Part shown: piece after piece, positions 3,211 to 15,571 of the stretch
How positions within the stretch are numbered: position 1 is the first letter of the stretch
Layout of the letters: the number at the start of each line of letters is the position of its first letter
Source of the DNA: Gammaproteobacteria bacterium
GTDB lineage: Bacteria; Pseudomonadota; Gammaproteobacteria; PS1; Pseudothioglobaceae
Length of the DNA: 27,996 nucleotides
Assembly: GCA_015658965.1 (NCBI GenBank)
Contig: DQNX01000088.1
Span: forward strand, 1 to 27,996
Reading direction: 5' to 3'
The notes under the pieces: generated by a model
The model's database searches: none
Told to the model about the DNA's origin: nothing
The model's input: the letters and a program-made list of their open reading frames with translations, nothing else
Translations under genes and position numbers: made by a program

Positions 3211-5415
3211 ATGTTACTCAATAGAACTCAAAAAAACCCGATCAAGATTACTGACAAAAAGATTGTCGAATGGAAATATGCCACTTGTGGTTATTGTTCT
3301 ACAGGCTGCTCTATGGAAATAGGATTTAATAAAGAGAACCATGCAGTTTCTTCCAGGGGTGTGGGTGGCGCTGATGTAAATCGTGGCAAGTTATGTCTTA
3401 AAGGAATTATGGAACATGAATTGTTTGCTTCAGCAGGACGTGGCGATAAGCCGTTGATTCGCAAGCACTGGCATGAAGAATTTGAACAGACTGACTGGGA
3501 TACAGCACTAGATGACGTGGCTGATAATATTAAAAAAGTTCAAGCTAAATATGGTCGTGACTCTGTAGCGATTATTTCTACAGGTCAAATGTTGAGTGAA
3601 GAATTTTATACTTTAGGAAAATTAAATCGTGGCTTGATTGGCACCAACAATTATGATGGCAACACCACACTTTGTATGGCATCAGCGGTATCTGGTTATA
3701 AACGCTCATTTGGCTCAGACGGCCCGCCAGGGTGTTATGAAGATTTTGAACATACAGACTGTTTAATTGCTTGGGGTTCAAACTTGCCTGAACAACACCC
3801 GATTATTTATTGGAGAATGAAAGAAGCGCAAGAAAAGCGTAATTTTCCACTCATTGTCGTTGATCCACGTGTCACCATATTTGCTCAGAGTGCAGATATA
3901 CATCTCACCGTCACTCCTGGTACAGATATTGTTTTACAAAATGCATTGATGCACGTGATTCTGAATGAAGGACTACAAGATGAAGACTACATTAAGAAAA
4001 ATACCAATGGTTATGACGAACTGAAAGCGGAGGTCGATAAGTATGACCCAACGACTGCGGCTAAAATTTGCGGTATTGACGAAGATACCATTCGTGTGGT
4101 CGCCAGACTGTTTGCTAAGGCAGGTGCAGCAATGCAAATCTGGACCATGGGTATTAATCAATCTACGCATGGATCTGATGGTGTAGTGGGTATTAACAAT
4201 CTGGCGCTTATTACCGGTAATATCGGTATACCAGGCGGTACAAGTTTGTCGATTACTGGCCAATGTAATGCGATGGGCACCCGAGAATGGTCATCATGCT
4301 CAGGCTTGCCGAATTATCGTGCGTTAGAGAATCCTCAGGATAGAGACGATATTGCTAAATTCTGGAATATTGATGTAGATTTCTTACCAACTAAGCGTGG
4401 TATGTTGCAAACAGATATCTTCCGAGCTATTGAAACCGGTGAAATTAAAGCGTTGTGGCTAATTGCCACCAATCCATTGTCTTCTTTACCTAATACAGCC
4501 AGAATTAGAAAGGCAATGGAGAGGCTAGAGTATTGTGTAGTGCAAGATTGTTACGAAGATACTGAAAGTGCACAATATGCCAATGTATTTTTACCCGCAG
4601 GTACGTGGGCAGAAAAAACTGGCGTAATGACCAATACTGAAAGACGAGTCAATATAGTACGCGGTATTATTGAGCCAAATGGTGATTCGAAGCCAGATTT
4701 TTGGATTTTCAATGAAATGTCCAAACGTTTTAATACCGAAGGAAAGGTAAACTTTCCGACAGAAACTCACGAGGTTTTTGAGGAGATGAAGGTCCTATCT
4801 AAAGGCCGTTTGTGTGATATTTCAGGCATGGATTATGACAAAATTGAAAAGAATCGTGGTATTCAGTGGCCATATACCCAAGAACAGGCAGATAATGGAG
4901 AGCAACCCCCAGCAGGAGGTAAGCGTATCTATACAGAAGACACGACATTTAGATTTGAGGATGGTAAAGCCAAACTCATACCGTTGCCATTTGTTGATAA
5001 TAACGAAGTGCCTGATGAAAGGTATCCAATTTGGTTGAATACTGGCCGTCTAGTCGAGCATTGGCATGGCCGTAGTAAAACTGGAAAAGTGGCCAACAAT
5101 AATAAATTTAGCCCGATTCCATTTATTGAAATTAACCCAGATTTGGCGATAGAAATTGGCGCTAGGGATGGTGACTATGTGCGATTAGTATCTAGACGAT
5201 CAGATGCAATTGTAATGGCCAAGTTTACTAATCGTGTAGCAAAGAATATGGTGTTTTTACCATTCCATTTTCATGATTGCGCAAATCGTTTAACGCTTGG
5301 TTTATTAGACCCTTATTCAAGACAGCCAGCATATAAACAGCAAGCAATAAGGATTGAGACCATTGAAGATCAAAAATCAGCGGCACAGTTAAGTATGGAA
5401 ATGAGAGAATATTAG
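3211..5415 (+). CDS. nasA: Mo-bisPGD oxidoreductase, NasA/NarB-type assimilatory nitrate reductase catalytic subunit
   Basis: N-terminal [4Fe-4S] motif CGYCSTGC...GKLCLKG; Mo-ligand Cys in TTLCMASAVSGY; TGQCNAMGTRE matches the NasA/NapA GQPNAMGGRE motif; C-terminal LNTGR..EHWH molybdopterin-dinucleotide domain; no twin-arginine signal; follows nirBD. Confidence 0.85.
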   Translation: MLLNRTQKNPIKITDKKIVEWKYATCGYCSTGCSMEIGFNKENHAVSSRGVGGADVNRGKLCLKGIMEHELFASAGRGDKPLIRKHWHEEFEQTDWDTALDDVADNIKKVQAKYGRDSVAIISTGQMLSEEFYTLGKLNRGLIGTNNYDGNTTLCMASAVSGYKRSFGSDGPPGCYEDFEHTDCLIAWGSNLPEQHPIIYWRMKEAQEKRNFPLIVVDPRVTIFAQSADIHLTVTPGTDIVLQNALMHVILNEGLQDEDYIKKNTNGYDELKAEVDKYDPTTAAKICGIDEDTIRVVARLFAKAGAAMQIWTMGINQSTHGSDGVVGINNLALITGNIGIPGGTSLSITGQCNAMGTREWSSCSGLPNYRALENPQDRDDIAKFWNIDVDFLPTKRGMLQTDIFRAIETGEIKALWLIATNPLSSLPNTARIRKAMERLEYCVVQDCYEDTESAQYANVFLPAGTWAEKTGVMTNTERRVNIVRGIIEPNGDSKPDFWIFNEMSKRFNTEGKVNFPTETHEVFEEMKVLSKGRLCDISGMDYDKIEKNRGIQWPYTQEQADNGEQPPAGGKRIYTEDTTFRFEDGKAKLIPLPFVDNNEVPDERYPIWLNTGRLVEHWHGRSKTGKVANNNKFSPIPFIEINPDLAIEIGARDGDYVRLVSRRSDAIVMAKFTNRVAKNMVFLPFHFHDCANRLTLGLLDPYSRQPAYKQQAIRIETIEDQKSAAQLSMEMREY

Positions 5416-5423
5416 GAACTATT

Positions 5424-7292
5424 ATGTGGAAAGTGAGAGACGACGAACCAAAAAATGCTTTTTTATGGGATAAAGAAACCAAAGAGAAGAATATCTATGG
5501 CCATTCGATAGAAAAAACCAGTGATGACAGCCCTCTGCGTAATCAGAGTCTAAATATTAATGGCGATAGTAGTGTCGGAGATAATCCAAATCGTTACAAG
5601 CAACATGGCTTTTACTTTAATGCAGATAATTGTATTGGTTGTCATGCTTGTGAATCAGCTTGTAGTGAAAAAAATGACGTTCCTGATCATATAGCATTCC
5701 GTTCAGTTGGCTTTGTTGAAGGCGGATCTTATCCTAATTATCAACGTCTTAATCTTTCTATGGCTTGTAATCATTGTGATGACCCAGTATGTTTGAAGGG
5801 TTGTCCAACACGAGCGTATACTAAATTTGCAGAATACGGCGCTGTATTACAAGATCCAGATATTTGCTTTGGTTGTGGTTATTGCACATGGGTCTGTCCC
5901 TACAATGCACCACAACTAGACCCTGTAAAAGGTCAAGTGAGTAAGTGTAATATGTGTGTGGATCGTCTTGAAGTAGGTCTTCAGCCTGCTTGTGTTGCTG
6001 CTTGTTTGGGGAATGCATTAGATTTTGGTGTGATTGAAAATCTACCTAAGGACAGGGAACAAGCAAAAGTTTCGATTCCAGGTTTTCCAGATCCTAAAAT
6101 TACCCAACCTAATATCCGTTTCCAACAAACTAAAGATACACAGCGAGATATGACCAGACCTGACGGTATGCCAATTAAATATCACAAACAAGATAATGGT
6201 GAATTTAAATCTGTTGTCGATATTGATAAGCATTCATCTAAGAAATATTGGGGTATGCAAAAATTATTGCATTCTCATGAGAATGCACACGCTATCTTTA
6301 CCTTGTGTAGTCAAGCAGCGATGGGTGCAACATTGTGGGTTATTGCATCTCAATTATTAAATTTAGGAGCAGTAAAATCAACCAGCGGTAATGGCATGAT
6401 TCCAATGATTGCAATATTATTAATTCTATTAACCTATGGTTTGATTAAGCTTAATTTACACTTAGGTAAACCACAATTCTTCTATCGTGGTTATTACAAT
6501 CTACGATGGTCTCCAGTTAGTAGAGAAATTGCAGGTGTGACTTTGTTTGTCATTGGTTTGATGATGATGCTATTTGTAGAAATCACAGGATTGAAAATAT
6601 TTGAATATTTTGCTTATGCTGTTACAATTATCGGCTTTGCGTTAGGCTCTTACTATATGTATAAGCTTTACCGTATACCAGCTAGACCATTTTGGGATCA
6701 TTGGCAAACAGGCAGTGCTTTTTACGGCACAGCGCTCAGTCTTGGAAGTTTGGTATTTGGTTTATTGCTAATGCCATTTGGATTGAGCGATGCGGGCATT
6801 ATGCAAATTGCTTCGATTGCTATGTTAGGGTTGGTCTTAGAAAGCATTGGACATATTGTTCATCGCCAAGATGTGAAAAAATTTGGTGAAAGTCAAGCCT
6901 CTTATTTTGAGCAGGTAACGACATTTGGTAAAACTTACCAGATGCGCAATACGCTGTTAGGTGTTAATATGGCTATCATGGTATGGTTAATAATGGAGCC
7001 AAGTGCTTTATTGCTTGCTATGAGTTTTGTATCTGTCTTAGTTTCAGCATATTTGGGTAGGATTTTATTCTATGCCTTGGTGATTCCAACGACGATGCCA
7101 GGTGGTTTTTTCTGGAAGAATGATAAGTTCAAAGAACATGCAATTGAGACGGGATTAGCTGATATGCCACAAATGGGTGTCATGGCAGACCGTCATCATA
7201 AGTTTGACGTTAAAGCGTTGATTGCTGTGATTAAACAGACGACTTTTAAAGAGGCATTTACCCAGATAAAGTCAATCGTTAGAGGTGGCTAG
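5424..7292 (+). CDS. Fusion of DmsB-like 4x[4Fe-4S] ferredoxin and DmsC/NrfD-like membrane anchor
   Basis: Four Cys groups ([11 protein letters not shown]; [14 protein letters not shown]; [12 protein letters not shown]; CNMC...PACVAAC), then about 8 hydrophobic helices with HLGKP and SREI motifs typical of DmsC/YnfH anchors. Confidence 0.88.
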
Positions 7293-9513: not shown

Positions 9514-10170
9514 ATGACTGACTGGATACAACGCTGGAAAGAGGGGAAAATTGGCTGGCACCGAGAGCAAGTAAATACTAAATTAATTGAATTTATTGAT
9601 TGTTTACAGTTAAAGTCTGGCGACACGGTATTTGTACCTTTATGCGGTAAGAGTGGTGATATGCTTTATTTACTTGAACAAGGTTTTAAGGTGATTGGCG
9701 TTGAGTTGAGCCAATTGGCCATTGAACAGTTTTTTGATGAGAATAATAGGACTTATACAATCAATCAAACTGAGAAATTTCAAGTGTATCAAGGCGAAAA
9801 TATTACGCTATATTGTGGTGATTATTTTTCTTTGGAAGCGTCGATGCTAACCTTAGTTTCAGCGGTCTATGATCGCGCTGCGTTAGTCGCTTTAACAGTT
9901 GATTTAAGAGAAAAATATGCGGCGCATTTATACTCTATAATATCAACAGATTGTCGGTTGTTGTTATTAACCTTAAATTATCCGCAATCACAAATAAGTG
10001 GGCCACCTTTTGCCGTTAATGAGGCGGAAGTGGCTTCACTTTTTAGTCAAGGGTTCGAATGTCAGAAATTACAGTGTTTTAATGACATTGAAAATGAGCC
10101 TAAGTTTCTACGCGCTGGCGTAGATTTTATTGAAAAAGCAACTTATTGTTTGCACAAGACCGGAGAGTAA
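9514..10170 (+). CDS. tpm: Thiopurine S-methyltransferase (SAM-dependent)
   Basis: W...W..G..GWH, VFVPLCGKSGDM, GVELSQLAIEQFF, YDRAALVAL, GPPF motifs. ATG at 9514 follows GAGG (ORF track uses TTG 9508). Confidence 0.93.
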   Translation: MTDWIQRWKEGKIGWHREQVNTKLIEFIDCLQLKSGDTVFVPLCGKSGDMLYLLEQGFKVIGVELSQLAIEQFFDENNRTYTINQTEKFQVYQGENITLYCGDYFSLEASMLTLVSAVYDRAALVALTVDLREKYAAHLYSIISTDCRLLLLTLNYPQSQISGPPFAVNEAEVASLFSQGFECQKLQCFNDIENEPKFLRAGVDFIEKATYCLHKTGE

Positions 10171-10174
10171 AAAA

Positions 10175-10507
10175 ATGGCAAAAAAAGTAAAAGGCGTAGT
10201 CGCCCAGTTTGGCACCAAAGGATATGGATTTATTACGGGTGATGATGATGAAAAATATTTTGTTCATCAGAAAAATATTTTTAATAAGTCACGTTTAAAG
10301 GCAAATACACGTGTTATTTTCATTGCAGAAGAATCTGAAAAGGGCTTGGTGGCAACTAACGTTGAGCTAGAGGGTGGTTCTGAAGTGGCTAGCCCGTCAG
10401 AATCAACTTCCACCACCACCACCGCTGTAAAACTTGCATTAAGCCTCTTGTTTATCGCACAAGCTGTGGTTATTTATAAGGTATTTTTTGTAACCGCTGT
10501 AGGCTAG
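10175..10507 (+). CDS. Cold-shock-domain protein with Ser/Thr-rich linker and C-terminal transmembrane helix
   Basis: RNP1 KGYGFI and RNP2 YFVH; hydrophobic tail LALSLLFIAQAVVIYKVFFV. ATG 10175 follows GGAGAG (ORF track start 10130 lies inside tpm). Confidence 0.85.
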   Translation: MAKKVKGVVAQFGTKGYGFITGDDDEKYFVHQKNIFNKSRLKANTRVIFIAEESEKGLVATNVELEGGSEVASPSESTSTTTTAVKLALSLLFIAQAVVIYKVFFVTAVG

Positions 10508-11416: not shown

Positions 11417-12487
11417 ATGAGTACAGATTCTAAAGCATTAATGAAATCCATTATCCAGCGTATTGCCACCGGCCCTGATTTGAGTAAGAATATTGATTTT
11501 GAAGAAGCCAAAGGCGGCATGCAAGCGGTGCTTCGTGGCGAGATTGATGATGTTCAATCGGCTATTTTCTTAATTGCTTTACGTATGAAGCGCGAAACCA
11601 TGGAAGAAAATGAAGGTATCTTGGCGGCTATTTTAGCTGAGAGTGATAAGCAAACTGTAAATGTCGAGCATTTGGTAGATTTAGGTGATCCATACAGTGG
11701 ATATAATCGATCCATTCCCATTTCGTCTTTTTTACCACCGTTATTAGCTGAACTTGGCTTGCCTACGGTTATTCATGGGCTAGACAGTGTTTCACCTAAG
11801 TTTGGCTTAACCCACCGCCATATTAGTGAGGCGTTAGGCTTGAGTGTTGATCATTCGACGGCCGAGGCGAAAGCAAGAATAGAAAACCCTGATATTGGCT
11901 GGTCATATATAGATCAAGCCAGTTATTGTAAGGGCTTGCATAACATTGTCTCTTTGCGTAATCGTGTGATTAAGCGCACCGTTGTTAATACAGTAGAGAC
12001 ATTGATTGCGCCATTACGCGGCAAAACCACGCACGCTATTTTGGGTTATGTGCATAAACCTTACCCACCAATTTACGCAAACTTGGTTAAAGCGTCGGGT
12101 GTCGATAGTGCTTTATTAATTCGCGGCGTTGAGGGTGGGGTGATCCCGTCACTACGCCAAAAAGGATTAATGATTTCTTATAAAGGCACGGATGAGCAGG
12201 ATCGTGTGGATATTGATCCGGCATCATTGGGGATTGAGCGAGACATGCGCGCCATCTCATTTCCAGGCGAGCTAGATGTGCATCAAAATATTACCGAGTT
12301 GGCGGACTATACAGTTAAGCTGGGTAAATCCGCACTTTCTGGTGAACAAGGTATGTTTTATGACGGTCTAGTTTTATCAGCCAGCTTGGTACTTTGGCAT
12401 ACTAAAAAAGCCGAATCATTAGTGGATGCATCACAGATGGCCAGAGAAGTTCTAGATTCTGGCAAAGCGTTATCACGTCTAACATAG
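11417..12487 (+). CDS. Anthranilate phosphoribosyltransferase-fold protein (TrpD2/YbiB-like), probably non-canonical
   Basis: Helical N-terminal domain (AIFLIALRMKRET) and GT-3/PRT-like layout, but the TrpD GTGGD and KHGNR motifs appear replaced by DPYSGYN and IHGLD. Confidence 0.7.
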   Translation: MSTDSKALMKSIIQRIATGPDLSKNIDFEEAKGGMQAVLRGEIDDVQSAIFLIALRMKRETMEENEGILAAILAESDKQTVNVEHLVDLGDPYSGYNRSIPISSFLPPLLAELGLPTVIHGLDSVSPKFGLTHRHISEALGLSVDHSTAEAKARIENPDIGWSYIDQASYCKGLHNIVSLRNRVIKRTVVNTVETLIAPLRGKTTHAILGYVHKPYPPIYANLVKASGVDSALLIRGVEGGVIPSLRQKGLMISYKGTDEQDRVDIDPASLGIERDMRAISFPGELDVHQNITELADYTVKLGKSALSGEQGMFYDGLVLSASLVLWHTKKAESLVDASQMAREVLDSGKALSRLT

Positions 12488-12541: not shown

Positions 12542-14179
12542 ATGAAGGCATCTGATCTATTTGTAAAAGCACTAGAAAACGAAGGTGTTGAATATATTTT
12601 TGGCATCCCTGGTGAAGAAAATCTTGACCTTCTTGATTCACTTAGAAATTCATCCATTAGATTTATTCTTACTCGGCACGAGCAGGCCGCCGCCTTTATG
12701 GCGGCGACTTATGGTCGTTTAACGGGCAGGTCGGGTGTGTGTTTGGCAACGCTCGGGCCAGGAGCAACTAATTTAGTGACCGCCATTGCTTATGCGCAAC
12801 TTGGCGCGATGCCACTGGTGATGATTACTGGGCAGAAGCCGATTAAAGACGGCTTACAAGGTAAATTTCAAATGTTAGACATTGTCAGAATGATGGAGCC
12901 TTTGGTTAAAGATTCTGACCAAATATCTTACGGCGGACAGATTCCATCTTTGGTGCGTGGTGCGTTTAGGATTTCCGAAGAAGAGCGCCCAGGTGCGGTG
13001 CATTTAGAATTGCCTGAAGACGTTGCCAGAGAAGAGGTTGACAATCCGCATGTTTTTTCAAAACAAACCATTCATCGAGTATTTGCCACAGATCAGGCGA
13101 TTTCGAAAGCAACCAAGGTTATTAAATCTGCAAAACGACCGTTATTACTAGTGGGTGCTGGCGCTAATAGAAAGCACATTAGACAACCATTGTCTAATTT
13201 TATTAAAAAAACTGGTATCTTATTTTTTAATACGCAAATGGGCAAAGGTGTTCTGAGTGGTTCTAATGATAACTTTATAGGTACGGCCGCATTTTCATCC
13301 AAAGATTATGTGCATGAAGCCATTAAAAAAGCAGACTTAATTATTAACGTGGGTCATGATATTGTTGAAAAGCCCCCTTTTATTATGAAGGGGGACGAGC
13401 AGCAAGTCATTCATATTAATTTCCACTCTGCCGAGATTAAAGATATTTATTATCCGCAAGTAGAGGTGATTGGTGATATTGGTAATTCAGTGATTAGACT
13501 GGGTGAGAATCTCGATACTTGTTATGCCTGTAATACGCAATGGGTGGATAAAATTCGTCAACGAACTAAGGTTGCTATTCACTCTTTGGATGATGATGAT
13601 TCGTTCCCAATGTTGCCACAACGAGTGGTATCTGATGTGCGCAAGGTGATAAATGATGACGGCATTGTATCACTTGATAACGGCATGTTTAAGCTCTGGT
13701 TTGCAAGACATTATCACGCCCATCAGCCTAATACTTTATTACTCGACAATGCTTTAGCAACGATGGGTGCTGGCTTACCATCAGCTATTGCATGTAGTTT
13801 AATGTATCCAGACAAGCAAGTATTGGCGGTGTGTGGTGATGGTGGTTTTATGATGAATTCACAAGAGCTAGAGACTGCAACACGATTAAAGCTTAATCTG
13901 GTTGTTTTGATTATCAATGATAATGGCTATGGCATGATTAAGTGGAAGCAAGCCGCTCTAGAATTGGATAATTTTGGTTTGGACTTTAACAATCCAGATT
14001 TTGTCAAATATGCTGAGAGTTATGGTGCGATTGGGCACAGAATAGAACAATGTGAGCAGTTAATTCCGACAATGGAAAAAGCGTTTAATACGGGTGGTGT
14101 GCATGTGATTGATTTACCGATTGATTACTCACAAAATACCAAAACACTACTGAATGACTTAAAACAATTTGATTACTAG
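12542..14179 (+). CDS. ThDP-dependent enzyme, acetolactate synthase-like large subunit; candidate 2-oxoglutarate decarboxylase
   Basis: LENEGVEYIFGIPGEENL, RHEQAAAFMA catalytic Glu, TLGPGATN, GDGGFMMN...NDNGYG ThDP/Mg motif; no ilvH-type small subunit adjacent. Confidence 0.85.
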   Translation: MKASDLFVKALENEGVEYIFGIPGEENLDLLDSLRNSSIRFILTRHEQAAAFMAATYGRLTGRSGVCLATLGPGATNLVTAIAYAQLGAMPLVMITGQKPIKDGLQGKFQMLDIVRMMEPLVKDSDQISYGGQIPSLVRGAFRISEEERPGAVHLELPEDVAREEVDNPHVFSKQTIHRVFATDQAISKATKVIKSAKRPLLLVGAGANRKHIRQPLSNFIKKTGILFFNTQMGKGVLSGSNDNFIGTAAFSSKDYVHEAIKKADLIINVGHDIVEKPPFIMKGDEQQVIHINFHSAEIKDIYYPQVEVIGDIGNSVIRLGENLDTCYACNTQWVDKIRQRTKVAIHSLDDDDSFPMLPQRVVSDVRKVINDDGIVSLDNGMFKLWFARHYHAHQPNTLLLDNALATMGAGLPSAIACSLMYPDKQVLAVCGDGGFMMNSQELETATRLKLNLVVLIINDNGYGMIKWKQAALELDNFGLDFNNPDFVKYAESYGAIGHRIEQCEQLIPTMEKAFNTGGVHVIDLPIDYSQNTKTLLNDLKQFDY

Positions 14180-14188
14180 GGTAGACGC

Positions 14189-15571
14189 ATGGCAGTAGAA
14201 AAACTAATTGTTAATCAAGTTTATACTGGTGCAGTATTAGCCGAGTTAGAAATGCATGACAGCACACAGGTGGATAACCTACTATCTACAGCGCTAGCAC
14301 TTCATCAATCAGGTTGCTTGGCAGTATATGAGCGCATCCAAATATTGCAAAAATTGGCTGAATTGGTTGATGCTGAACATGAAGATTTTTCTCGTTTAAT
14401 TGCTAATGAGGGAGGTAAGCCAATTCGGGATGCACGTGTTGAGGTAACGCGTGCAGTAAACGGTATACACATCGCTATTACTGAAATTGAAAATAGCAAA
14501 GGTGTTGAAATACCTATGGATTTAAGCGCTGCAGGCGCTGGCCATAAGGCATTTACTATTTTGGAGCCGATTGGCGTTGTGGTCGCAGTCAGTGCTTTTA
14601 ATCACCCGCTTAATTTAAGCATTCATCAAGTTATTCCAGCCATTGCTACAGGTTGCCCAATAATTATTAAACCCGCATCTGTTACGCCATTGTGCTGTTT
14701 ACGTTTGGCTGAATTAATAGAGCAAGCGGGCCTGCCAAAAGGCTGGGTGCAGGTAGCATTAACCAATCTTGAAAATTCAGAAAAACTCGTTACTGATTCG
14801 CGTGTTGCATTTTTTAGTTTTATTGGCTCAGCAAAAGTTGGCTGGTATTTAAAGTCTAAGTTAGCACCGGGTACGCGCTGCGCCCTAGAGCACGGTGGTG
14901 TAGCGCCACTTATTTTTGCTGAATATGCTGATGAGGATGGATTTATTAATGGTGTGGTAAAAGCCAGTATGTACCATTCAGGTCAGGTTTGTGTCTCCGT
15001 ACAGCGTGTGTACGTACCTCAAGACAGAGCGCAAGCGTTGGCGCAAAAAATTGCCAATGTTGCCGCCAAGCAGGTGGTGGGTGATGCCATTAATGAAGAC
15101 AGTGATTTAGGCCCGTTAATCCTACCGAAAGAAACGGATCGAATTGAGGCCTGGGTGGATGAAGCCATTAAAGAAGGTGCAACACTTATTACAGGAGGAA
15201 AACGCATTAATGCCGTGAGCTTTGAACCAACAGTTTTGCTCAACCCATCTAAAATTTCGAAAGTATCAACGCATGAGATTTTTGGCCCGGTTGTTTGTGT
15301 GTACGCTTATCAAAGCATAGATGATGCGATTAAAGATGCGAATAGTTTAGATGTATCGTTCCAGTCTTCTGTGTTTAGTGATGACGTCGAAGTGGCGATG
15401 GATGTGGCAAAAAAACTCGAAGCCAGTGCGGTGATGATTAATGATTACACCACCTTTAGAGTCGATTGGATGCCGTTTGCTGGGCGCAAACATTCAGGTT
15501 ATGGCATTGGTGGTATTGGCTACACCATGAAAGACATGCTTGAACATAAAATGATCGTAACCAAGGCCTAA
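14189..15571 (+). CDS. NAD(P)+-dependent aldehyde dehydrogenase (ALDH21/RL0313-like); candidate succinic semialdehyde dehydrogenase
   Basis: AFNHP, IIKPAS, FIGSAKVG, LEHGG (Glu), GQVCVS (catalytic Cys), EIFGPV, FRVDWMPF. Confidence 0.88.
   Translation: MAVEKLIVNQVYTGAVLAELEMHDSTQVDNLLSTALALHQSGCLAVYERIQILQKLAELVDAEHEDFSRLIANEGGKPIRDARVEVTRAVNGIHIAITEIENSKGVEIPMDLSAAGAGHKAFTILEPIGVVVAVSAFNHPLNLSIHQVIPAIATGCPIIIKPASVTPLCCLRLAELIEQAGLPKGWVQVALTNLENSEKLVTDSRVAFFSFIGSAKVGWYLKSKLAPGTRCALEHGGVAPLIFAEYADEDGFINGVVKASMYHSGQVCVSVQRVYVPQDRAQALAQKIANVAAKQVVGDAINEDSDLGPLILPKETDRIEAWVDEAIKEGATLITGGKRINAVSFEPTVLLNPSKISKVSTHEIFGPVVCVYAYQSIDDAIKDANSLDVSFQSSVFSDDVEVAMDVAKKLEASAVMINDYTTFRVDWMPFAGRKHSGYGIGGIGYTMKDMLEHKMIVTKA

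Follow-up and report, generated by a model that had tools for sequence, protein, structure and literature searches.

A putative 2-oxoglutarate decarboxylase/succinic-semialdehyde dehydrogenase gene pair behind an 'acetolactate synthase' label in Candidatus Thioglobus

The gene pair considered here lies on contig DQNX01000088.1 (assembly GCA_015658965.1), of which positions 1 to 27,996 were analyzed and are referred to below as the window. The contig belongs to a metagenome-assembled genome (MAG) of Candidatus Thioglobus (SUP05), with 1.13 Mb on 174 contigs and a completeness of 89.6%. The pair codes for an enzyme dependent on thiamine diphosphate (ThDP), named P0001, and an aldehyde dehydrogenase (ALDH), named P0002. 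Our observations cover its gene structure, family membership, conserved residues, synteny and gene distributions, as well as the expression of an orthologous protein in a relative. The locus is arranged as follows:

12542..14179, + strand: P0001, candidate ThDP-dependent 2-oxoglutarate decarboxylase, 545 aa, automatically labelled 'acetolactate synthase large subunit' (Pfam TPP_enzyme_N/M/C, NF006187)
14180..14188, + strand: spacer of 9 nt (ggtagacgc) between the P0001 and P0002 genes, read directly from the sequence
14189..15571, + strand: P0002, ALDH21-type aldehyde dehydrogenase, 460 aa, candidate NADP+-accepting succinic-semialdehyde dehydrogenase (Pfam Aldedh, 390.8 bits; best solved relative 5mz5)

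The first-pass annotation had described a two-gene unit with a 9-nt gap, combining a ThDP enzyme and an ALDH with neither a regulatory small subunit nor ilvC nearby. Both descriptions hold, as the two open reading frames (ORFs) follow each other on the same strand across the spacer at 14180-14188, and no ilvH, ilvN or ilvC is present within the window. A promoter and terminator scan returned no terminator-like site between the two genes, and its counts were at the level of shuffled sequence. The P0001 and P0002 genes are likely co-transcribed.

P0001 matches the NCBIfam model NF006187 (PRK08322) with 847.5 bits over residues 1-542, which is over the cut-off of 509, and the cyanobacterial-type proteins of clade II (see below) reach 760-780 bits on the same model. 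It falls under the cut-offs of both models for the acetolactate synthase AlsS (461.6 vs 510 and 419.7 vs 551.1 bits) and of the model for biosynthetic acetohydroxyacid synthase (AHAS; TIGR00118, 382.4 vs 538.35 bits). P0001 is 42-44% identical to cyanobacterial OgdA orthologues, compared with 31-36% for AlsS-like proteins and 31% for IlvI. P0001 resembles AlsS (Klebsiella 1ozf, Bacillus 4rjj) in fold, domain order and the lack of a regulatory subunit, and belongs to the same ThDP superfamily as biosynthetic IlvI/IlvH. Among solved structures, the closest ones go by the name acetolactate synthase: 13bb (461 bits) and, behind it, AlsS (317-339 bits). We rejected 13bb as a functional guide, as it is named only 'acetolactate synthase', has Met at the position of K384 in P0001 and tells no function. 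The label 'acetolactate synthase large subunit' is also carried by all P0001 orthologues among proteins named Candidatus Thioglobus (80-89% identical) and among those of the Bathymodiolus, Abyssogena and Ruthia symbionts (63-78% identical). In Candidatus Thioglobus autotrophicus, the P0001 orthologue is ALE52959.1. In one member of the family, P0138 (677 aa), a cyclic-nucleotide-binding domain stands at the C-terminus and hints at allosteric control in certain lineages.

In cyanobacteria, a bypass made of 2-oxoglutarate decarboxylase plus succinic-semialdehyde dehydrogenase (SSADH) is established (PMC10418658, PMC5160925). The decarboxylases of these systems (OgdA/KGD with SsaD in Synechococcus sp. 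PCC 7002, A2770/A2771; Sll1981 of Synechocystis; MaKGD of Microcystis) share with P0001 both the membership in NF006187 and the misleading label. For MaKGD, 2-oxoglutarate is the clearly preferred substrate. As an anchor for cyanobacterial OgdA we used four peptides with residue numbers, which were translated from the mutagenesis primers in the supplement of PMC10418658 (Microcystis KGD). Two proteins guessed to be cyanobacterial representatives from MaKGD residue numbers were discarded: P0200 comes from the Roseobacter group, and P0222 belongs to relatives from Dadabacteria/Thermodesulfobacteriota and led on to alignment A1. This alignment of peptide-like proteins retrieved 80 named loci, including those of Chlorogloeopsis PCC 6912, Nostoc, Microcoleus, Trichodesmium and a Merismopediaceae genome. 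The retrieved cyanobacterial proteins contain the MaKGD peptides exactly and with identical numbering, and in the Merismopediaceae protein every residue named in PMC10418658 is found at the same number. The ALDH gene just upstream of these cyanobacterial ThDP genes codes for an SSADH of the Synechococcus 7002 type (4it9, 661 bits). Because of the exact peptides and the 7002-type SSADH upstream, the retrieved cyanobacterial loci are bona fide ssaD-ogdA loci.

A close match of P0001 to the cyanobacterial enzyme had been suggested earlier, based on the N-terminus. For the N-terminal signature the comparison bears this out: P0001 reads LENEGVEYIFGIPGEENL and the OgdA orthologues read LENEGVEYVFGLPGEENL, with 16 of 18 positions the same and PGEEN in common; AlsS-like and IlvI proteins have PGAK/PGGA at this position. 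Close orthology over the whole protein was not found, given the identity of 42-44% and the placement of P0001 in a separate, well-supported clade. Trees were calculated with FastTree (205 sequences) and IQ-TREE (LG+C20, SH-aLRT; 71 sequences). P0001 and the other Thioglobaceae proteins fall in clade I (SH-aLRT 97-99), which is characterized by the active-site motif DNG(M/L)(Y/F)K.W. Clade II holds cyanobacterial OgdA (core support 95), as well as many sulfur-oxidising and other Proteobacteria, Nitrospirota, Planctomycetota and Poribacteria, and has the motif DVGAHK.W. Unlike cyanobacterial OgdA with DVGAHKMW, P0001 has DNGMFKLW. The best tree has a branch that separates clades I and II from AlsS-like proteins and IlvI, with a support of only 10.

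We compared the ThDP machinery as the catalytic Glu, the GDG...N(D)N motif and the Met that supports the V conformation. The cofactor residues of P0001 are all present (E47, G432-D433-G434, N459-D460-N461), and E47, D433, D460, Y463 and M408 align with E50, D435, D462, Y465 and M410 of MaKGD. Substrate positions have been proposed by docking of 2-oxoglutarate against Q254, V382, K386, A408, L467 and K471 of MaKGD and of H385 against ThDP; these assignments derive from an AlphaFold model, with no solved structure behind them (PMC10418658). The two candidate substrate lysines, K386 and K471, are kept in P0001 as K384 and K469, and A408 is kept as A406. P0001 also has the GYG(L/M)I.WK loop of cyanobacterial OgdA, and in AlsS-like proteins the two lysines are replaced by Tyr and Gln. 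The second lysine follows a Trp, which we take to match the 'QWED' tryptophan that lines the substrate channel of plant AHAS.

The partner P0002 did not score over the cut-off of any NCBIfam model. All SSADH models of the GabD/SsaD/Sad type gave scores under their cut-offs (TIGR01780, 257.7 of 646; NF006916, 257.1 of 521; NF008415, 227.9 of 828), and the identity to cyanobacterial SsaD is about 27%. The closest solved structure is ALDH21 of the moss Physcomitrium patens, an NADP+-dependent SSADH (5mz5, with 5mz8 and 5n5s; 283 bits and E 5e-83 for 5mz5 over residues 8-458), in agreement with the earlier suggestion that the ALDH resembles the ALDH21 group. In ALDH21 the carboxylate of succinic semialdehyde is bound by Arg121, Arg457 and Tyr296 (bioRxiv 10.64898/2026.01.13.699213). 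Residue numbers were transferred from ALDH21 to P0002 by means of the 18-residue tag offset of the 5mz5 alignment. R88, R424 and Y262 of P0002 align with Arg121, Arg457 and Tyr296, and form a putative carboxylate-binding triad; R88 in EVTR and R424 in FRVD are thus located where the first-pass annotation had expected them. C268, E234 and N138 are the catalytic residues. No variation at the two arginines or at the catalytic Cys, Glu and Asn was seen among the ALDH21-type partner ALDHs examined (n=22), and the Arg/Arg/Tyr triad is likewise kept in all of them, in the partners of both ThDP clades. The coenzyme-specificity site of P0002 is KPAS164, the same as the KPAS of ALDH21, and because of this Ser its coenzyme is probably NADP+. 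Some bacterial P0002 orthologues have KPAE instead, and the Glu suggests that these use NAD+. Unlike the moss enzyme, P0002 is bacterial and is encoded in an operon with a ThDP enzyme, and its activity and coenzyme are predicted from sequence.

The association of the two genes extends well beyond the window. In 17 of 24 Thioglobaceae relatives, an ALDH adjoins the P0001 orthologue. Clade I enzymes of Thioglobaceae have an ALDH21-type partner, and a gene order with glutamate dehydrogenase (GDH), an NDH-2-like protein, the ThDP enzyme and an SsaD-type ALDH (43% identical to cyanobacterial SSADH) was found for the clade I member P0148. Clade II is accompanied by an upstream SsaD-type ALDH in cyanobacteria, and by an ALDH21-type partner immediately downstream in Methylococcaceae, Gemmatimonadota, Planctomycetota, Pseudomonadales, Porifericomitaceae and others (47-53% identical to P0002). 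Each ThDP clade thus occurs with SsaD-type and with ALDH21-type partners, and both decarboxylase clades therefore combine with both types of SSADH. The two enzymes are moreover joined in single ORFs:

L112:4001-7051: P0122, ThDP-ALDH fusion of clade I, 1016 aa, on a 128-kb contig
L113:1849-4908 and L114:813-3872: P0142, ThDP-ALDH fusion, 1019 aa

P0142 stands beside a eukaryotic RRP12-like HEAT-repeat gene and may itself be eukaryotic.

A further gene of this neighborhood codes for a GltS-like flavin mononucleotide (FMN) protein (PF01645 Glu_synthase, about 505 aa). It abuts the pair in four clade I genomes and follows the ALDH in an unrelated gammaproteobacterium of clade II, where the protein is 64% identical; in the symbiont of Isorropodon fossajaponicum (G012) it is broken into three pieces, and in the host MAG it is missing. 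The copies are located as follows:

G017, L108:2230-3783: GltS-like FMN protein, clade I
G020, L104:5082-6596: GltS-like FMN protein, clade I
G001:C15:48852-50318: GltS-like FMN protein, clade I
G007:C147:1220-2701: GltS-like FMN protein, clade I
G036, L100:6001-7518: GltS-like FMN protein, clade II
G012:C1:452054-453516: GltS-like FMN protein, fragmented

Characterized members of this domain family bind 2-oxoglutarate/glutamate, and the GltS-like protein may represent a glutamate-oxidising entry step to the pair. In another gammaproteobacterium (G026, locus L098, G026:C87:1-8000), a clade II ThDP gene is located just downstream of sucC-sucD, with sucA on the same contig. This is a direct physical link of a clade II gene to genes of the tricarboxylic acid (TCA) cycle, in a genome that has 2-oxoglutarate dehydrogenase (OGDH).

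No AHAS-like large subunit besides P0001 was found in the host's own assembly. We rejected the conclusion that the genome has no AHAS other than P0001 and ascribe it to the assembly, because ilvH and ilvC lie at a contig break, the contig is collinear with an ilvI-bearing contig of a congener, and all congeners carry ilvI. Specifically, ilvC and ilvH are both on contig C126, where the contig end cuts ilvH (G000:C126:3725-3964), and in the collinear congener contig (79% identity) ilvI starts about 330 nt past the end of C126. In 11/11 congeners, an IlvI-type gene (about 587 aa) exists in addition to the orthologue of P0001, which reaches about 850 bits on NF006187; one of each is present only as fragments. 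The caveat of the first-pass annotation, that P0001 might be the sole AHAS and needed for branched-chain amino acids, does not apply to this lineage. The gene for monomeric isocitrate dehydrogenase (IDH) is similarly split by an assembly break in the host (G000:C58:286-1821 and G000:C83:2993-3640).

The P0001 orthologue and sucA do not occur together in the family relatives compared. An orthologue is present in 20 of 24 Thioglobaceae relatives (in two of them as contig-end fragments), none of which has sucA (TIGR00239), and the three relatives with sucA all lack the orthologue; the remaining one (88% complete) has neither. In the host MAG, too, the search for sucA that had been proposed earlier gave no match to TIGR00239. 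This complementarity fits a replacement of OGDH. Searches of the host MAG also gave no isocitrate lyase (aceA), no 2-oxoacid:ferredoxin oxidoreductase (POR_N) and no acetolactate decarboxylase (alsD; AAL_decarboxy). Neither glutamate decarboxylase nor GabT was found there, and we therefore discarded a γ-aminobutyric acid (GABA) shunt as an origin of succinic semialdehyde. Monomeric IDH, sucC, dapD and a gene of the malate/lactate dehydrogenase type are present. No SdhA/FrdA over the cut-off was detected in the host MAG, the sole good match being a 520-aa NadB-like ORF, and a canonical succinate dehydrogenase flavoprotein was not found in most congeners either. A flavoprotein of about 640 aa in some Thioglobaceae, two congeners among them, reaches 300-334 bits on the SdhA/FrdA model, which is under the cut-off. 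This protein could be a succinate dehydrogenase or fumarate reductase of a non-canonical type; the host MAG gave no copy of it. Its locations are:

G004:C12:6909-8723: SdhA/FrdA-like flavoprotein, about 640 aa
G011:C104: the same type
G014:C57: the same type
G013:C1:1325221-1327035: the same type
G015:C19:28030-29847: the same type

The first-pass annotation had read the pair as a 2-oxoglutarate decarboxylase and an SSADH hidden under the 'acetolactate synthase' label, and the membership in NF006187, the kept lysines, the ALDH21 triad and the gene context agree with it. Judging from the sequence evidence, we consider this reading the probable one, with appreciable room for error. The operon would then provide a route from 2-oxoglutarate to succinate in two steps that is free of coenzyme A (CoA). 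The ThDP enzyme would decarboxylate 2-oxoglutarate non-oxidatively to succinic semialdehyde and CO2, and the ALDH21-type enzyme would oxidize succinic semialdehyde to succinate, probably with NADP+. From the succinate pool, SucCD could form succinyl-CoA for DapD, with NADPH arising as a by-product of the route. Substrate, direction and size of the flux, and physiological role are what we infer here. The role is most likely the supply of succinate and succinyl-CoA and not a closed oxidative TCA cycle, because IDH, succinyl-CoA synthetase and DapD are present, whereas OGDH, 2-oxoacid:ferredoxin oxidoreductase, isocitrate lyase, the genes of the GABA shunt and canonical SdhA were not found. Of the TCA-cycle bypass proposed originally, the pair leading from 2-oxoglutarate to succinate is probable, but closure of the cycle was rejected for the host, with no canonical SdhA found in it or in most congeners.

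Several observations weigh against this reading. P0001 falls outside the clade of assayed decarboxylases, and clade I has no assayed member. Support for the backbone that connects clades I and II with the AlsS-like clade is too low to show or reject a sister relationship of the two clades. At the docked positions, Q254 is replaced by S252 and V382 by N380 in P0001, with a conservative change from L467 to M465, and H385 is replaced by F383. Several members of clade I have no ALDH neighbor. Absences of genes from the host MAG need comparison with congeners and are weak alone at 89.6% completeness. Within Thioglobaceae, one event may account for the complementarity with sucA. In genomes beyond the family (G026, G029, G035, G036 and G038), the pair is found together with sucA and is therefore not simply a replacement of OGDH. 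The need for new succinate may also be small, since SucCD can reuse the succinate that DapE sets free, and NadB could form some succinate from fumarate.

Alternatively, the pair could be a generic 2-oxo-acid decarboxylase with its ALDH that acts on another substrate, such as 2-oxoadipate or another 2-oxo-dicarboxylate, hydroxypyruvate, sulfopyruvate or phosphonopyruvate, and whose product is not succinate. The distinctness of clade I from the assayed clade, its lack of an assayed member and the changes at three docked 2-oxoglutarate positions and at the His385 position would all be compatible with this. So would the sub-threshold matches of P0002 to dehydrogenase models for lactaldehyde (343 bits), sulfoacetaldehyde (272) and phosphonoacetaldehyde (270), which are all far under the cut-offs, and one clade I gene that lies among RraA-like, lyase and malic-enzyme genes without an ALDH. 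We nevertheless regard another substrate as unlikely. P0002 keeps the exact carboxylate-binding triad of ALDH21, ALDHs of the same orthogroup partner clade II enzymes with the cyanobacterial active-site motif, and the neighboring genes for GltS-like proteins and GDH indicate a link to 2-oxoglutarate/glutamate. Furthermore, this autotroph with its 1.1-Mb genome makes 2-oxoglutarate through IDH, and no supply pathway for the alternative substrates was seen, although no systematic search for one was made.

That P0001 is a true acetolactate synthase, either catabolic and AlsS-like or a second anabolic enzyme without a subunit, next to a functionally unrelated ALDH, is very improbable: the database label on every orthologue, the names of the nearest solved structures (13bb, AlsS) and the lack of another AHAS large subunit in the host assembly are opposed by scores under both AlsS cut-offs and the biosynthetic cut-off, by K384 and K469 in place of the Tyr and Gln of AlsS, by the missing acetolactate decarboxylase in the host MAG, by the ilvH-ilvC genes on C126 next to the expected ilvI, with a separate ilvI-ilvH-ilvC locus in the lineage and no small subunit or ilvC adjacent to P0001, by the ALDH that adjoins the gene in 17/24 relatives of the family and elsewhere forms a fusion with the ThDP enzyme, and by the assayed cyanobacterial members of the family, which according to PMC10418658 carry the same acetolactate synthase label and do not use pyruvate.

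Taking the pair as a 2-oxoglutarate decarboxylase and an SSADH, it resembles the cyanobacterial bypass in that the ThDP gene adjoins the gene of an SSADH-type ALDH and the host has no detected OGDH, with the GDG...NDN motif and both lysines shared by the decarboxylases. In contrast to the cyanobacterial bypass, the partner in Thioglobus is of the ALDH21 type and located downstream instead of upstream, and the cycle is probably not closed, as no canonical succinate dehydrogenase was found in the host. The idea that a decarboxylase/SSADH pair spans the gap in a TCA cycle described as 'incomplete', in an obligate autotroph that oxidises sulfur, has a parallel in Thiomicrorhabdus and related autotrophic Gammaproteobacteria, for which a set of OGDC and SSADH is cited as proposed in PMC9751133; that set comes from a different order of Gammaproteobacteria.

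Evidence on the protein level is available from a relative. The orthologue in the Bathymodiolus thermophilus symbiont (OIR24908.1, our P0105; 64% identical to P0001) was detected in 3/3 symbiont-enriched samples at 0.012-0.017 %OrgNSAF (PMC6976577, Table S4a). The same table lists an ALDH, OIR24916.1, whose orthology to P0002 could not be confirmed. An 'anthranilate phosphoribosyltransferase' with a nearby accession (OIR24904.1) stands beside the P0001 orthologue in this proteome table.

The surroundings of the pair in the window include a TrpD-like protein directly upstream and msbA as the convergent downstream neighbor:

11417-12487, + strand: TrpD-like glycosyltransferase-family-3 protein, directly upstream of P0001 (best model NF005635 'hypothetical', 138 bits vs 287)

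The TrpD-like protein is far under the trpD cut-offs, and the same neighbor precedes the ThDP gene in another genome (G018). Further ORFs in the window were labelled in the first-pass annotation as a nitrate reductase of the NasA type with a fused ferredoxin/DmsC-like protein after it (3211-7292), and as a cold-shock-domain protein with a C-terminal extension (10130-10507).

In oxygen-minimum zones and hydrothermal plumes, SUP05/Thioglobaceae rank among the chemoautotrophs of highest abundance, and they also live as thiotrophic symbionts of deep-sea bivalves. Their TCA cycle has been inferred to be of the horseshoe type (PMC13508795, 2026). For the thiotroph of B. azoricus, the lack of all known routes to succinate was reported and a supply by the host proposed (PMC5270565), and the same succinate claim was made for the Catillopecten symbiont (PMC10999363; our G017). 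The deposited ALDH of this symbiont is automatically named 'succinate semialdehyde dehydrogenase', and the genes of the pair are not listed in the supplements of PMC10999363. Our search of the open-access literature gave no paper that links a succinic-semialdehyde shunt to Thioglobaceae.

We tentatively posit that clade I might represent a second lineage of 2-oxoglutarate decarboxylases. Together with an ALDH21-type SSADH, and in some species with a membrane GltS-like FMN protein that feeds the route from glutamate, it could make SUP05/Thioglobaceae self-sufficient for succinate and succinyl-CoA, including the thiotrophs hosted by Bathymodiolus mussels, by vesicomyid clams and by the scallop Catillopecten. 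The chemistry of a bypass from 2-oxoglutarate to succinate is already known, and the surprise would be moderate. If true, the cyanobacterial bypass would also exist in a new enzyme clade, there paired with an SSADH that is not orthologous and probably serving an anabolic role, and the supply of succinyl-CoA in free-living members would find an explanation that can be assayed. The 'horseshoe TCA' description of globally abundant ocean bacteria would be corrected. The symbionts of mussels, clams and the scallop would gain a source of succinate that published reconstructions deny, and with it a main argument for host-supplied succinate (PMC5270565, PMC10999363) would fall.

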